Shown here: positions 20,429-62,884 of the stretch, in pieces
Layout of the letters: every line of letters begins with the position of its first letter
Numbering within the stretch: position 1 is the first letter of the stretch
Source: a virus
Taxonomy: Duplodnaviria > Caudoviricetes
Length of the DNA stretch: 64,000 nucleotides
Virus record (IMG/VR): IMGVR_UViG_3300037478_000283
Location: 4,567-68,566 of that record
Direction: 5' to 3' (one strand)
Position numbers and translations under genes: made by a program
Notes under the pieces: model-generated
Databases searched by the model: none
Told to the model about the DNA's origin: nothing
The model's input: only the letters and a program-made list of their open reading frames with translations

Positions 20429-21259
20429 TCATGCAGCGCTCCTGAGCTCGACGTTCTCATTCCCAAGTATCGCGTCGATGTCGATCACAGCCTCAGCGAC
20501 ACACCGACACTGAACTGGCTCACCAGGGATCCCCTCGCTCGGCGGGTCATTCCAGGTGAACGTCTGGCCGTCCAGCGCGGCATGCTCGTCCCGGACCCGT
20601 TCGTCCCGAGACGTGCGCCAGATCCATCGATCGATTCCGATGTTGCGCTGCCGGGCCTCGTTGAGCTGGCCGTTCAGCTTGTTGATCTGGTCCCTGGCGA
20701 TCACCTTGGCTCGGCCCTCGAGGGTGCCGAACTCCAACGGCAACCCTCGGCGTTTCCATTGGTCGCGAAGCACCTCGTGCCTGATGCCACCCGCGAATGC
20801 GCGTTCGATGTCCGGCCGCAGGTCGACCTGGCGCACCGATTTGATCAGACTTGCATTGCCGGCGATCCACTCGTTCAGGAGACCACCTCGAAACCCCTCG
20901 CTGGCCACAACCTCGACGCCGATCGCTGAGTTCAGGCGCCGATAGAACTCGCCCCTGTGACGACCATCGACCCGACGGGCCTGCTCTGATGCGATCTCTC
21001 GCGCAGCCGAGTCGCTCATGACGGTTCGCAGCTTTGGGCCGAGAGCCAGGATCGCCCGGCTCAATGCGGATGGCAGACGCACCGAGCCATCACCGGCGGC
21101 GTCGCCACGCGCACTGATCGCCGATGCATACGCCGGCAGCACCGTTGCGTTGATGTGCTGCCACGCTGCGATCCGAAGCCTGAGCAGCCGTCGCTCGTAG
21201 TCCACCGCCAGCCGCGTCGGCGGCTCAACGGCCCGCATTCGACTGCGGCGGCGTGACAT
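20429..21259 (-). CDS. minor head/head morphogenesis protein (SPP1 gp7 / Mu F family)
   Basis: RAKVIARDQINKLNGQLNEARQ...WIWRTSRDERVRDEHAALDG...PGEPVQCRC. Confidence 0.92.
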   Translation of the reverse strand: MSRRRSRMRAVEPPTRLAVDYERRLLRLRIAAWQHINATVLPAYASAISARGDAAGDGSVRLPSALSRAILALGPKLRTVMSDSAAREIASEQARRVDGRHRGEFYRRLNSAIGVEVVASEGFRGGLLNEWIAGNASLIKSVRQVDLRPDIERAFAGGIRHEVLRDQWKRRGLPLEFGTLEGRAKVIARDQINKLNGQLNEARQRNIGIDRWIWRTSRDERVRDEHAALDGQTFTWNDPPSEGIPGEPVQCRCVAEAVIDIDAILGNENVELRSAA

Positions 21260-23349: not shown

Positions 23350-24610
23350 GGTATTCCGTACTGATTTCGCGGAGTTACGGTGGGACAAGGCCGAGGAAAT
23401 GCCCAACGGCTGGCTCAAAGTACCAGCGGTGATCGGGCGCTCCGGAGTGTTCCCGTATCAGCAGCCAGACGGCACAGTGGTCCGCGAGTACAGGCCACCA
23501 GATGAGGTTGGGCACACCGATTCGGTCTCGAGCTTCGATGGTGTCCCGTTCACGATCGACCATCCGCCGCTTGAGCTGGATGACCAGAACACCACCGCAT
23601 TCTCCAAGGGGATCACGAATCGAGCTCGCTACAACGCCAACGACAAGCATGTCGAGGCGCAGATTCTGATCTTCTCCCGTGACGCCAAGATGGCTGCTCA
23701 ACAGACGCATCGTCAGTTGAGCCCAGGCTACACGGTCCTGCTTGACCCTACGCCAGGGATGACGCCGGACGGCGAACGATACGACGTCATCCAGCGAGTC
23801 ATCCGAGGCAATCACGTGGCCGGGGTACCCCAAGGTCGACAGGGTCCAGAGGTCGCATTCCGTTTCGATGCCCGCGACGCCGCCGTCGCGATCAACCCCG
23901 AGGAAAACACCATGACCGTGCAACGCGACGACGCGAAGAAGACCAAGATCACGATCGGCGACAAGAGCTATTCGGCGGGCGCCTTCGCCCGAGCGATCGC
24001 AAAAGCGATTTCGGACCTCGGCGCCGAGGAGGAAGAGGAAGAGGAGAAGCCGAAGGACAAAAATAAGGACGTCGCAGAGTTGCCCACGCCTGCGCCAGCC
24101 GTTGCGCCTGCTGCTGTCACGCCTCCCGCTCCTGTTCCTACCCCTGCGCCGGTCGCTGCTCCTGCCGCGGTCGTCAATGCCGACGCGGACAAGCTGCAGG
24201 CCAAGTACGACGCGGCCATGGAGCGACTCAATCGCATGCCGGAGGAGATCGAGGTTCGCTCCGATCTGCTATCTGCGGCAAAGGGCGCGATCGGTGCCGG
24301 ATACAGCGGGCGTACTGACAGCGGCGCACTCAAGACCGTTCGACAGATCCAGGAAGATGTGATCGCGAAGGTCCTGGGAACAGCCGCCGGCAAAGCCCTC
24401 GAGGGTCGTAGCGACGGATACGTCGAAGGCCGATACGAGACCGCGCTCGAGCGACTCGACGAGCAGCGTAATCACGGCGAGCGCCTCGTCGAGATCGCAC
24501 GCCAAGCGCATCAGGACGGCGGCGAAGAGGCTCTACATCCGGCCGAGGCAGCGCGACGCAAGGACGAAGAAGAGAGGCGGAACGCCTGGAAAACCAGAGC
24601 GGCCAGCTGA
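23342..24610 (+). CDS. DUF2213 head maturation/scaffold protein
   Basis: GWLKVPAVIGRSGVFPY...SFDGVPFTIDHP...QLSPGY...IRGNHVAGVPQGRQGPEVAFRFD plus acidic/Pro-Ala scaffold tail. Confidence 0.9.
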   Translation: MDRVFRTDFAELRWDKAEEMPNGWLKVPAVIGRSGVFPYQQPDGTVVREYRPPDEVGHTDSVSSFDGVPFTIDHPPLELDDQNTTAFSKGITNRARYNANDKHVEAQILIFSRDAKMAAQQTHRQLSPGYTVLLDPTPGMTPDGERYDVIQRVIRGNHVAGVPQGRQGPEVAFRFDARDAAVAINPEENTMTVQRDDAKKTKITIGDKSYSAGAFARAIAKAISDLGAEEEEEEEKPKDKNKDVAELPTPAPAVAPAAVTPPAPVPTPAPVAAPAAVVNADADKLQAKYDAAMERLNRMPEEIEVRSDLLSAAKGAIGAGYSGRTDSGALKTVRQIQEDVIAKVLGTAAGKALEGRSDGYVEGRYETALERLDEQRNHGERLVEIARQAHQDGGEEALHPAEAARRKDEEERRNAWKTRAAS

Positions 24611-59303: not shown

Positions 59304-59470
59304 TGTCCCGCGACACCAAAGCACTCAAACGCCTCTACCGGCGAGGGAACGCGCCCAGACCGACCAGGCAACCGTTCCGTGCGTGGTGCCGGGAACTCGC
59401 CGCGTATGCTGGTGACGATGCGAAGCGGCTGGCGGAGGGCTGGCTGCGCAGGAAAGGGCTGCGACAATGA
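59303..59470 (+). CDS. basic 55-aa protein
   Basis: TGATG/ATGA overlaps, GGAG RBS. Confidence 0.55.
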   Translation: MSRDTKALKRLYRRGNAPRPTRQPFRAWCRELAAYAGDDAKRLAEGWLRRKGLRQ

Positions 59471-59871
59471 GCCGATCCGGATACGGCAACTGCGAAAACC
59501 CAGCCTGCTACATGTGGCAGAGCGTCGTAGACCGCACGATCAAGGGCAAACGCGGGCAAGCCTTCCTCCGCGAGTGCCTGGCTGCCCTCGACGCGTTGCC
59601 GGAAAAGCGCCTGGTCGCAGGCGAGCTCGTATCGGAGGAGGGATGCTGCGCGATGGGAGCTGTTGCGCTGGCGCGAGGCATGGACGTGCGCAATGTCGAC
59701 GCGGACAACAGGAGACAGGTTGCAGACGCGTTCGGCATCACGCCCTCATTGGCCTCGGAGATTGCGTACGTCAACGATGACGATGCGTATTACCTACCTG
59801 ACGAAACACCCGAGCAACGCTTCGAGCGCGTCCGCAAGTGGGTTGCCTCGCGGATCGTGGAGGACATCTAA
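59467..59871 (+). CDS. conserved hypothetical phage protein
   Basis: MSRSGY...KGKRGQAFLRECLAALDALPEKRL...CAMG. Confidence 0.8.
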   Translation: MSRSGYGNCENPACYMWQSVVDRTIKGKRGQAFLRECLAALDALPEKRLVAGELVSEEGCCAMGAVALARGMDVRNVDADNRRQVADAFGITPSLASEIAYVNDDDAYYLPDETPEQRFERVRKWVASRIVEDI

Positions 59872-59963
59872 TGAGACTGCTTGAACGCCTCGTGCTCCGA
59901 GCACTTCGCCTCGCCATCGTGACACTCGTCGCGCTCTACGTCTATCACGGAGGCGTTCGGTGA
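59871..59963 (+). CDS. 30-aa hydrophobic peptide
   Basis: TAATG overlap, GGAGG RBS. Confidence 0.4.
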   Translation: MRLLERLVLRALRLAIVTLVALYVYHGGVR

Positions 59964-59967
59964 TCCT

Positions 59968-60037
59968 GGGTCGTGAGCTCTGGGGAGCTGCATGGACTCC
60001 AAATCCGTGCGGTGCGGTTCGATTCCGCAGCGACTCG
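59968..60037 (+). tRNA. trnW: tRNA-Trp(CCA), non-canonical 70-nt cloverleaf, CCA end not encoded
   Basis: Acceptor GGGTCGT/GCGACTC, D arm GCTC-TGGG-GAGC, anticodon arm GCATGGA-CTCCAAA-TCCGTGC, T arm TGCGG-TTCGATT-CCGCA, discriminator G. Confidence 0.8.
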
Positions 60038-60045
60038 CGAACAAC

Positions 60046-60422
60046 GAGACCCACGGCCCGTTTTAGGGCCAAGGTTGCCGCAAGGCTGAGGACGGTGAAA
60101 TACACACCTGGACCCCTCGTCTGGATCGAAGGCGTTGGACGTCGGACGAAACACGCCACCCAATCAGGCATTAGCCTGAGTGCAAGTGGAAGACGTGACT
60201 TGCCGGTTGAGAGCAACCGGCTGCACCCGATCTGGCAATGGTGCCTCCGACCACCAGTCCATTCGCCTGTAGCGAACGACTGGGTATGTGAAGCACGGCG
60301 GTCGGACCTCGGCAACGGGGAAGATCGGGCCTTTCTGGGACTGCGCGCGCGCTACCACTCGCGTGACGGCGCTCGACTTCGTGCGCGTGTGCGGTCCCAC
60401 CTTTTCCCGGTGTCTCTTTTTT
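60046..60422 (+). ncRNA. candidate ~370-nt highly structured ncRNA
   Basis: Closed by GAGAC 60046-50/GTCTC 60412-16 followed by T6; more than 10 nested helices, two GCAA tetraloops. Confidence 0.7.
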
Positions 60423-60463
60423 CGCCAGCCCCGCGGCGCGAGCACAGACCTCGCTCCGCGAGC

Positions 60464-60483
60464 TTATCCCCAACTTATCCACA
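60464..60483 (+). promoter_or_regulatory. tandem DnaA boxes TTATCCCCA and TTATCCACA
   Basis: Perfect consensus at 60475-83, 1-mismatch copy at 60464-72, 11-bp period, non-coding. Confidence 0.7.
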
Positions 60484-60570
60484 CGCAACGCTGAACACCA
60501 GCTCCTAACCCGATCTGCGTAGGCGCTCGCCTCGCTCCCACTCCAAACCCTTCCTACACCGCGATCTCGA

Positions 60571-60900
60571 ATGACTCAAGCACAAATAAAAGCCGGGCAG
60601 CCGGAATCGTCGAACCCTCGCGGCTCCGGCATGCGTGACGACGGTCCCGGCGACATCAAGCCGAAGGACGCACTCGCTGCACGGGTGACCAGGTATCGGA
60701 GCGGCGAAGAGTTCGGTCGGATCGACGAGTCGCGGCTTTGGATCGCCGAAGCGTTGCGGCTCGAAGAAGAGCTCAGTGGCGATTCGCGGGCAGCAGTCGG
60801 GATCTTGCGGCGACGCGTGGAGGCGAGTTTACGGAAACGGTTTGGCGACGAGCAGGCACAGCAGGCGATGTGGCTTGCGGGGAAGGGGGCGGAGCCGTGA
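60571..60900 (+). CDS. hypothetical protein
   Basis: ORF after DnaA boxes; start uncertain. Confidence 0.5.
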   Translation: MTQAQIKAGQPESSNPRGSGMRDDGPGDIKPKDALAARVTRYRSGEEFGRIDESRLWIAEALRLEEELSGDSRAAVGILRRRVEASLRKRFGDEQAQQAMWLAGKGAEP

Positions 60901-61112
60901 CAGACGCTGAACTTGTAGAGCGAGCCGTTCGTAACGCTGGCATCAGAAGCTGCGACCGTTTGCCGAAGTGGGCCCATGTTCGCGATGCGTTCGGGATTGG
61001 CTCAACCTCGGCTACAGAGCTGTGCCGGCGCTTCAGCTCCGACCCTGATGAGCTGACCGGAATCGATGAAGCCGAGATCGTCGCCCGCGAGCAGACGGAG
61101 GCGGAGGGATGA
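60897..61112 (+). CDS. conserved hypothetical phage protein
   Basis: KWAHVRDAFGIGSTSATELCRRF..DPDE. Confidence 0.7.
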   Translation: MTDAELVERAVRNAGIRSCDRLPKWAHVRDAFGIGSTSATELCRRFSSDPDELTGIDEAEIVAREQTEAEG

Positions 61113-61660
61113 TAGCCGCCGTTCTACTCGCAGCCCTGCTTTCGCCTCCTGGCGCCGCCGACCTCACGCGTCCGCTGCTGCATACGATCACCTACCCAGG
61201 CTCGCTCCGCAGTCGCAAGGGCCCCACCTATCATCGTCACTGCCGCGAGGCGCCCGGCGGCTGCGTGGCCCGCGTCCGTCGGTTCGCTGCGCTGATCCTG
61301 TGGGCGGCACACCGGCACCGGGTAAGCCAGACGCTGCTGGCTTCGATGGCTCTGCGAGAATCAGGGCTAAATCCATGGGCGGTCGGTCCGGGCGGGGAGC
61401 GTGGACTTCTCCAAATCCACCCCTCCAATCGCATGGCGCACCGCGTCACGTTTCACAAGCGCCCCGAATGCGCGCGGCGATCGGATGCGTGCCAGTGGGA
61501 AGTGATCGACGCCGCGGCTGAGCTACTCGCGTCGGCGATCCGGGTCTGTCGATCGGTTGAGTCTGGATTGACCATGTACTGGTCTGGGAGATGCGGATCG
61601 TCAGGATACGCCGCTCGGGTAATCGCGACTCGTAATCATATGGAGGCATCAGGTGTCTGA
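61109..61660 (+). CDS. lytic transglycosylase (SLT) with signal peptide
   Basis: ALRESGLNPWAVGPGGERGLLQI; hydrophobic N-terminus. Confidence 0.88.
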   Translation: MIAAVLLAALLSPPGAADLTRPLLHTITYPGSLRSRKGPTYHRHCREAPGGCVARVRRFAALILWAAHRHRVSQTLLASMALRESGLNPWAVGPGGERGLLQIHPSNRMAHRVTFHKRPECARRSDACQWEVIDAAAELLASAIRVCRSVESGLTMYWSGRCGSSGYAARVIATRNHMEASGV

Positions 61661-62174
61661 GGTATGGAAGCCTATCACCGGAGCTGACGGTTACGAAGCG
61701 TCGTCACTTGGTAACATCCGCTCATGGAGAAGCAATGGTGGCAATCTCCGCAAATCACCGAAGCTTATAAAGTGTCGCGCTGGAAACGGCCATGGGTACT
61801 TGATGTTTCTCGCATCCGGTGGGGCAAAGAGGAGACTGCTAACGGTCCACCGGTGCGTCCTGGTTGCATTTGCCGGGCCACTCCCATTCGCCGGCGCTGT
61901 ATGCCGTCACATGAACGGCGACAAAGCAGATAACCGTGCTGAGAATCTTGCTTGGGGTACACGCGAGGAAAACGAAGCCGATAAGGAGCGTCACGGCACG
62001 AAGTTGTACGGAACGGCGGTATACGGAGCAAAGCTGACCGATGAACAGGTGCAGTCCATTCGTATGGACCCGCGCCGACAAATTGATATCGCCCGCGAGT
62101 ACGGCATTGGACAGCAACACGTCAGTAAGATCAAATTAGGACAGTGTCGGATCCAACTGAAAGGTGAGGCATGA
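61653..62174 (+). CDS. NUMOD4-HNH homing endonuclease
   Basis: EVWKPITGADGYEASSLGNIRS...VHRCVL.AF.GP...CRHMNGDKADNRAENLAW. Confidence 0.92.
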   Translation: MSEVWKPITGADGYEASSLGNIRSWRSNGGNLRKSPKLIKCRAGNGHGYLMFLASGGAKRRLLTVHRCVLVAFAGPLPFAGAVCRHMNGDKADNRAENLAWGTREENEADKERHGTKLYGTAVYGAKLTDEQVQSIRMDPRRQIDIAREYGIGQQHVSKIKLGQCRIQLKGEA

Positions 62175-62884
62175 GTCGCATCGCCTATCCACTCCCCGAC
62201 AAGCCTGCATCGGGATACCACAACCGCAAGCTGCGCCGAAGTGTCGTGCGCCAGATCGTGGATCTTGCGGATGAAGGCCGAGACCTGCACGACATCGCCA
62301 GGATCGTGAAGTTGGGTTGGTCCGCCGTGAGGGATGTACTCGTGGTACGCGGCTATTTCCGCGACGCTCGTTGCACCCCGGACGAGCGCACCAAGTTCCA
62401 CCGCGAGCAACGGCAGCGCGAAGAGCAGCGCGCCCGTGAGGCAGCGGAACACGAGCGGATGATGGCGGCGATCGGCGCCGAGCTGTCGCGTGCGCGCGAA
62501 CAGGCAGCCACGAACCCACTATCCTGTCCGGCGCCGCAGCCCATCGATATCGATGTTCCGACCAGCTTCTCGGCATCGCAGGACTGGCCGCTTTGCCTAC
62601 ACGGTCATCCGCGAACGCCGGAGAACTATACCAATAATGGTAAGTGCCGAGCGTGCCACAACAAGTGCGAACGCAGGCGCCATCACCGTAGGGAGCAACA
62701 CCGTATGACAGCAAAACGAAAGCGGGACGCTGTCCGTGCGTCCGGCGAGTTCCCGCGCAAGTCGATCTCGATCCGCGGAGCCACCTACAAGCGGTTGCAG
62801 GAGTACTGCCAGCAGCGTGGCATTGCGGTCTCGGCACTCATTGAGTCGTGGATCGCGGAGCAGATCCAGGAGGACACGCAGTGA
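62171..62884 (+). CDS. HTH + CxxGH zinc finger + RHH multi-domain regulator
   Basis: LHDIARIVKLGWSAVRDVL; CLHGHPRTPEN...CRAC; RKSISIRGATYKRLQEYC...VSALIESWI. Confidence 0.75.
   Translation: MSRIAYPLPDKPASGYHNRKLRRSVVRQIVDLADEGRDLHDIARIVKLGWSAVRDVLVVRGYFRDARCTPDERTKFHREQRQREEQRAREAAEHERMMAAIGAELSRAREQAATNPLSCPAPQPIDIDVPTSFSASQDWPLCLHGHPRTPENYTNNGKCRACHNKCERRRHHRREQHRMTAKRKRDAVRASGEFPRKSISIRGATYKRLQEYCQQRGIAVSALIESWIAEQIQEDTQ

Follow-up and report, generated by a model that had tools for sequence, protein, structure and literature searches.

A candidate structured RNA of about 370 nucleotides directly downstream of a tRNA-Trp gene in a phage genome record

Stable RNAs and spacer RNAs of tRNA operons include the 'species 1 and 2' RNAs of phage T4 and the E. 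coli 3'ETS-leuZ sponge, with lengths between tens of nucleotides and some 140 nt. Phage and bacterial genes can also carry structured 5' leaders or mRNA stabilisers. The larger RNAs ROOL and GOLLD are located close to tRNA islands in phages (10.1101/2024.12.08.627333). Large structured RNAs beside phage tRNA genes, such as these two, are among the least understood RNA classes, and each independent example helps show whether tRNA linkage is a general phage route to stable RNAs. In the phage DNA studied here, the stretch that follows a tRNA-Trp gene very probably encodes a tightly folded RNA of about 370 bases without a match among the catalogued families. The block is small enough for chemical probing and cryo-EM, and its predicted core is very well defined. 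It is also rare (two near-identical copies) and without a cultured host, and so adds a candidate to those already described.

The phage record and the tRNA-Trp locus

The window (the whole stretch of DNA that was analysed, 64,000 nt) comprises bases 4567-68566 of a 68.6-kb IMG/VR virus record, which is estimated to be 79% complete and has a GC content of about 62%. Terminase, portal, protease and major head genes are present on the record, and a search of IMG/VR for relatives of the major head protein found none. Relatives of the 134-aa gene directly upstream of the RNA block occur in Pseudomonas, Sphingomonas and Limnobacter genomes and in many proviruses, which points to a host that is probably a proteobacterium. 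The main features of the locus are as follows.

59968-60038, + strand: tRNA-Trp gene (anticodon CCA), atypical, detected by ARAGORN, adjoining the 5' side of the RNA block
60039-60409, + strand: conserved structured RNA block, the proposed unit, with a match in metagenome run X3, a fold z-score of -4.83 and no Rfam match
60410-60612, + strand: variable spacer outside the RNA unit, from the comparison with X3 and direct reading of the sequence
60571-60900, + strand: downstream orphan gene of 109 aa, its frame kept in X3 from 60613 onward

The block begins immediately after the tRNA, which ends at 60038, as the preliminary description of this DNA had placed it. This is the sole tRNA gene that ARAGORN detects in the window, and it is intact and full length, not a 3' fragment. 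Its T-arm is canonical and its D-loop has only 4 nt. None of the tRNA-clan Rfam models matched it at the gathering score, the best being tRNA-Sec with 35.5 bits (47 needed). A hydrophobic mini-ORF of 30 aa (MRLLERLVLRALRLAIVTLVALYVYHGGVR) at 59871-59963 ends 4 nt 5' of the tRNA and has no family match. The RNA block, the tRNA and all of the flanking genes have the same (+) orientation. In a scan of the interval from the upstream gene to the RNA, no sigma-70-like promoter was found, which fits co-transcription of the RNA with the tRNA.

Conservation in a related phage and coding potential

We compared the region 59400-61000 with Logan contigs from three sediment metagenome runs belonging to three studies. 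Run X1, probably the origin of the phage record, contained a sequence identical to the phage and run X2 contained identical fragments. Run X3 contained a different strain; a contig of 774 nt from it aligns with 60037-60409 at 98% identity, with 8 differences in 373 nt. Beyond 60409 this contig departs from the phage: 60410-60612 is replaced by 23 unrelated bases, 60613-60634 is matched, the following 161 nt give way to 158 nt, and 60796-60894 is matched again, here with 18 differences in 99 nt. The next gene on the contig is approximately 82% identical to its counterpart, other pieces from X3 that cover the upstream gene show 81-91% identity, and overall the flanks of the block are 80-91% identical or replaced. 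On this single contig, 8 of 373 positions differ in the block versus 19 of 121 in the next gene (Fisher p = 3e-7), at a depth of 3 that allows single differences to be sequencing errors. The block is under visible constraint relative to its neighbours.

Because the X3 match ends at 60409 and the sequence after it is replaced, we take 60039-60409 as the unit. The comparison of the two strains indicates that this block is a discrete unit and that 60410-60612 is an indel between strains, and the proposal that a discrete RNA unit lies here is borne out to the extent that the block behaves as one in the related phage. The 203-nt spacer holds the GTCTC strand, a T6 run (60417-22), two DnaA-box-like 9-mers (TTATCCCCA and TTATCCACA, at 60464-83, absent from X3) and the first 14 codons of the next gene. 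The preliminary description had closed the RNA with a helix between GAGAC (60046-50) and GTCTC (60412-16), followed by T6 at 60417-22 as a terminator. These elements are present in the sequence, but that 3' end falls outside the conserved block and is missing in X3; since X3 replaces 60410-60612, the unit of conservation excludes the closing helix, the T6 run and the DnaA-box-like 9-mers. The T6 run follows a long-range helix, not a local one, and a scan of the + strand found no consensus intrinsic terminator.

The 23 inserted bases of X3 end in ATGAGCGAAGCCGCC, which joins in frame to 60613, so that the next gene in X3 starts 8 nt after the block. The downstream gene is real, because its reading frame is conserved in X3. 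Its true start lies upstream of the 89-aa IMG call at 60631, probably at 60571. A search of 5.8 billion clusters found no relatives of the 109-aa protein. Further downstream, 1.2 kb from the RNA, a homing-type endonuclease gene with NUMOD4 and HNH_3 domains occupies 61653-62171, and a second ORF, weakly HNH-like, follows it directly at 62171-62881. A co-conversion tract as the cause of the RNA conservation is disfavoured, because the gene between the RNA and the HNH gene is only 82% identical.

With 8 nt between the X3 block and the next gene there is no space for a terminator or a promoter, so transcription must continue into that gene, which is compatible with a leader and with a free RNA alike. 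The main rival to a free RNA is a cis-acting one, in which the block serves the downstream orphan gene or operon as its 5' untranslated region, a structured leader, and becomes the start of the downstream fragment once the tRNA is cut out. The fold would guard the message from 5'-end-dependent decay, or the long 3' hairpin (hairpin D, listed below) and its U4 tail would control the transcription or translation that reaches the next gene. The X3 arrangement, with an ATG 8 nt after 60409 and neither terminator nor promoter between, agrees with a leader, as do the lack of a consensus intrinsic terminator on the + strand, the lack of conservation of the T6 run and the conserved frame of the downstream gene, which is therefore real. 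A four-domain structure of 370 nt is, however, very large for a stabiliser, and no riboswitch or leader family matched it. In the phage itself a spacer of 160-220 nt of unrelated sequence intervenes, and the block stays intact while its distance from the gene varies by approximately 200 nt, unlike an expression platform. We judge the leader to be rather unlikely.

Public gene calls over 59960-60508, which take in both the tRNA and the RNA, give a hypothetical protein of 137 aa in IMG and of 182 aa in Logan. A protein-coding gene, whether this + strand ORF or one on the - strand, could account for a frame that is open across the entire block and for the fact that both sets of calls place a product here. 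The + strand ORF, however, has its start within the tRNA gene, which is on the same strand, or ahead of it (upstream of it in the 182-aa form). The GC content by codon phase is flat over 60040-60560, with no third-position signal, while both flanking genes show the usual third-position excess. Pfam gave no match for any of the five overlapping ORFs, and PHROG gave none for the 182-aa ORF, the only one scanned there. Against 1.84 billion protein representatives, the 182-aa ORF, which the preliminary description had singled out as overlapping the RNA, matched only itself and one 30-residue stretch that we read as noise; its protein cluster consists only of the IMG and Logan calls of this same DNA, and there are no relatives in 5.8 billion clusters. 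A translated search with the - strand ORF found no relatives. Both long ORFs extend past 60409 into the sequence replaced in X3, and in X3 the change at 60171 abolishes the stop of the 105-aa - strand ORF. Read in the 182-aa frame, the mapped X3 changes fall at codon positions 2, 1, 3, 1 and 2, with no third-position bias. The public gene call is very probably false, and we consider any coding explanation of the block highly improbable.

Predicted fold of the RNA block

The + strand of the block is predicted to be strongly and strand-specifically structured. For 60039-60425 the minimum free energy (MFE) of the + strand is -175.1 kcal/mol, versus -149.2 +/- 5.4 kcal/mol for dinucleotide shuffles (z of -4.83), so that the RNA folds better than shuffled controls, as had been expected of it; the - strand of the same region has a z of -2.46. 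A background of contig windows was added because shuffles flatter natural sequence. Against this background the whole 373 nt ranked 23 of 1020 windows after GC correction. The core, 60152-60399 (248 nt), ranked 0 of 734 background windows, that is, as the most stable (GC-corrected MFE z of -3.54), and its ensemble diversity of 10.9 (median 57) was the second lowest among the 734, with some selection bias remaining in these ranks, since the target window was chosen and the background lay on a fixed grid. The 734 windows were taken from both strands and covered about 86% of the contig, with sampling up to 54901. Two other segments, both in the head-gene region, also have unusually well-defined predicted folds: 24301-24548 on the + strand (ensemble diversity 7.4) and 21001-21248 on the - strand (ensemble diversity 17.2, MFE z of -2.6). 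The parts of the predicted fold are listed below, with P denoting pair probability.

60044-60120, + strand: 5' domain, a weakly defined multiloop with small hairpins at 60055-70, at 60077-86 (GCAA loop) and at 60094-108, hairpin P 0.87-1.0
60152-60197, + strand: hairpin A, with the tip UCAGGC-AUUA-GCCUGA, helix P 0.84-0.99
60202-60221, + strand: hairpin B, 8 bp with an AGAG loop, P 1.00
60226-60329, + strand: four-way junction domain C, main helices P 0.94-0.99
60336-60399, + strand: hairpin D, a stem of 17 bp, three of them G-U, below a structured tip, P 0.98
60400-60409, + strand: 3' tail CCUUUUCCCG, the last conserved bases, from the X3 comparison and pair probabilities

The helices that had been picked out by eye can all be read in the sequence where the preliminary description put them, among them the hairpins TCAGGC-ATTA-GCCTGA and GCCGGTTG-AGAG-CAACCGGC and the three small 5' hairpins. 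A stem given as 16 bp and G-U-rich, at 60337-52/60383-98, is present and measures 17 bp (60336-52/60383-99) with 3 G-U pairs. The CCGATCT stem is likewise found, as part of a closing stem of domain C that spans 60226-33/60322-29. Two further helices, GGCGT/ACGCC and GTGCA/TGCAC, do exist as complementary strands, but both compete with a likelier hairpin, 60152-62/60181-97 (P 0.84-0.99).

Domain C is made up of an 8-bp closing stem, a 4-bp hairpin, a 7-bp arm that itself branches at an inner three-way junction, and a 5-bp hairpin capped by a GCAA loop; in the predicted fold its four-way junction has zero unpaired junction bases. The small inner hairpin of this domain (60284-99) has a P of 0.70-0.74. 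The 5' third of the block, 60039-60150, is thermodynamically poorly defined, and the helix that closes the 5' domain (60044-48/60116-20) has a P of just 0.28. An alternative closing helix, between 60123-32 and the 3' tail at 60400-60409, has a P of approximately 0.3-0.4. We found no loop-loop complementarity of at least 5 nt in the predicted RNA fold, of the kind that kissing loops, pseudoknots or multimers might use. The block also contains no tandem repeats, which removes a toxin-antitoxin-like repeat RNA from consideration. Five GGA triplets lie within 62 nt of the loosely folded 5' third (60088-60149), a density in the top 0.9% of windows by a post hoc count. Over the whole RNA the GGA motif is not enriched (9 occurrences versus a background mean of 7.7), and a CsrA/Rsm sponge was rejected for this reason.

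Of the 123 predicted pairs, 9 are G-U; those in hairpin D would be A-C mismatches on the - strand, and the two GNRA (GCAA) loops exist on the + strand only. These properties bear on the possibility that the block acts as DNA, as a replication origin or a packaging or attachment site formed by inverted repeats and adjacent DnaA boxes. The two DnaA-box-like 9-mers at 60464-83, one of them TTATCCACA, lie just downstream, and tRNA genes are common integration sites. The X3 phage lacks the segment with these boxes yet keeps the block, and the G-U pairs and the stronger fold of the + strand indicate RNA, not duplex DNA. No tyrosine or serine recombinase was found in the record (79% of the genome), and the tRNA is full length; with no integrase in the record, the attP reading was set aside. 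We regard a DNA-level element as improbable.

Five of the eight X3 differences could be mapped by position.

60171, T to G: in the loop of hairpin A
60224, C to T: unpaired in the MFE fold; G-C becomes G-U in the alternative helix of the preliminary description
60268, T to C: in a loop of domain C
60314, A to G: GCAA becomes GCGA in domain C, keeping a GNRA loop
60318, G to A: U-G becomes U-A in domain C

None of these five changes breaks a pair, and four fall at positions that are unpaired with P of at least 0.96. Among random sets of the same substitution types, 6.75% also broke no pairs, and only 1.5% matched the energy of the original fold on the variant. The substitution pattern is suggestive only (p of about 0.02-0.07). 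Between the variant and the phage, sequences that are 98% identical and the only two available, there are 0 two-sided changes and 1 or 2 one-sided compatible ones.

The block could also have no RNA function at all and be a well-folding, non-coding spacer of a GC-rich genome that is near-identical in the two phages through recent recombination. Phage genomes are mosaics, only two sequences are at hand, at a length of 373 nt several windows in coding sequence of the contig come close to the block in folding, and the substitution test is weak. A neutral spacer would not be expected, however, to contain the most stable and second best defined core among 734 windows, nor to show the strand asymmetry and the GNRA loops. 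The block also ends sharply, at the foot of hairpin D and its tail, whereas the adjoining gene of the X3 contig has diverged by 18%. We consider a functionless spacer unlikely.

Relation to known RNAs and a possible origin from the tRNA transcript

The whole window was searched by cmscan with the 4227 families of Rfam 15, and none matched the block at gathering scores. At E<=10, searches of 901 nt and 401 nt returned two chance matches only, a plant miRNA hairpin (18.7 bits versus 64 needed) and a human lncRNA. The suggestion that the RNA lies outside the described families, and the more specific one that it bears no signature of a group I or II intron, RNase P, tmRNA or SRP, therefore agree with the Rfam results. 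The models of GOLLD, ROOL, OLE, raiA and HEARO had no match in the block, nor had those of RNase P RNA, SRP RNA and 6S RNA, and a tmRNA was found by neither ARAGORN nor Rfam. A group I or group II intron and a small self-cleaving ribozyme were rejected, as there is no Rfam match, the tRNA is uninterrupted and the position of the block is intergenic. The 68.6-kb record contains no RVT_1, TnpB zinc-ribbon or IS110 DEDD domain, and a retron ncRNA, a TnpB/IscB omega RNA and an IS110 bridge RNA were dismissed since no partner protein gene is on the record.

Searches for homologues were similarly without result. Distant-mode blastn of phage and plasmid records found no homologue of the block. Of 47 IMG/VR loci reached by synteny through the upstream 134-aa gene, none has a tRNA or a similar sequence beside that gene, and the three contigs that carry the best relatives of its protein (at most 62% identical) show no comparable gene order; ten GTDB loci also carry relatives of the gene. 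Pattern searches of IMG/VR with the core 19-mer and the 3' part of the tRNA gave no further homologue, a 24-mer pattern gave none in GTDB genomes, and exact and degenerate patterns in JGI metagenomes gave 28 matches, all by chance, without hairpin complementarity or partner strands. A covariance model of 60150-60332 was run against the window and 40 related viral records, and also against about 300 proteobacterial genomes, made up of 5 single genomes and 151 from each of the two classes to which a Pseudomonas and a Sphingomonas match belong. It returned only matches of approximately 20 bits in which the core was deleted (one in genome G186), which we read as noise. An antisense target on the contig was looked for as well, but the longest stretch complementary to the block measures 12-14 nt, close to the chance expectation. 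The block is accordingly known from two phage variants only, and it is plausible that these two near-identical sequences represent a new orphan RNA class.

The reading we favour, though with less confidence than would make it probable, is that the block yields a stable, structured + strand RNA from a rightward polycistronic transcript, with a 5' end set by 3' processing of the tRNA-Trp and a 3' end set or protected by hairpin D, and that this RNA acts in trans. The rightward transcript would carry the upstream genes, the tRNA-Trp and the RNA block. RNase P would cut on the 5' side of the tRNA and RNase E or Z on its 3' side, which would place the 5' end of the RNA at about 60039, a release suggested by position. 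Hairpin D (60336-60399) and the short tail could serve as a 3' barrier or a processing site. The product would be a stable RNA of approximately 370 nt with a loose 5' third, two hairpins, the four-way-junction domain and a long terminal hairpin. During infection it may work in trans on a host or phage factor that it binds or sequesters, as has been proposed for other tRNA-adjacent phage RNAs. Of this picture, the stable fold, its strand specificity, the missing coding signal and the conservation of the block as one unit are established here, and transcription, processing and function are inferences.

Several points count against this free RNA. Its two sequences are 98% identical and hence offer no covariation, and such high identity could reflect a recently exchanged mosaic module and not purifying selection. 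At full length the RNA stands out less from the genomic background (the rank of 23 among 1020) than does its core, with the 5' third poorly defined. The X3 contig stops at 60037, so that any tRNA upstream of the block would lie beyond its edge. More tentatively still, the block could be the founding member of a new class of mid-sized phage RNAs (about 370 nt) with a gap-free four-way junction and a long terminal hairpin, released from a tRNA transcript and acting in trans on a host or phage factor, probably in a proteobacterial host from sediment.

The block resembles ROOL and GOLLD in kind, and not by homology: it is phage-encoded, lies beside a tRNA gene, has an elaborate multi-helix, multi-domain predicted fold with GNRA loops, and has no known protein partner (10.1101/2024.12.08.627333). 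It differs from both in failing to match their Rfam models even at E<=10, in the lack of detected pseudoknots or self-complementary loops, and in being represented by just two near-identical copies. At about 370 nt it is also much smaller than GOLLD, whose members are often more than 800 nt long (10.1101/2024.12.08.627333). The structured 5' leaders share with it the arrangement seen in X3, where the start codon of the following gene comes right after the block; the block is, however, far larger and more modular than they are, its distance from the gene differs by approximately 200 nt between the two phages, and it matches no known leader family. By analogy, the block may be mechanistically closest to the stable and spacer RNAs released from tRNA precursors. 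Like the T4 'species 1 and 2' RNAs and 3'ETS-leuZ, it lies beside a tRNA in what would be the same transcription unit, and it would be a by-product of tRNA maturation, although those RNAs are much shorter and have no likeness to it in sequence or structure.
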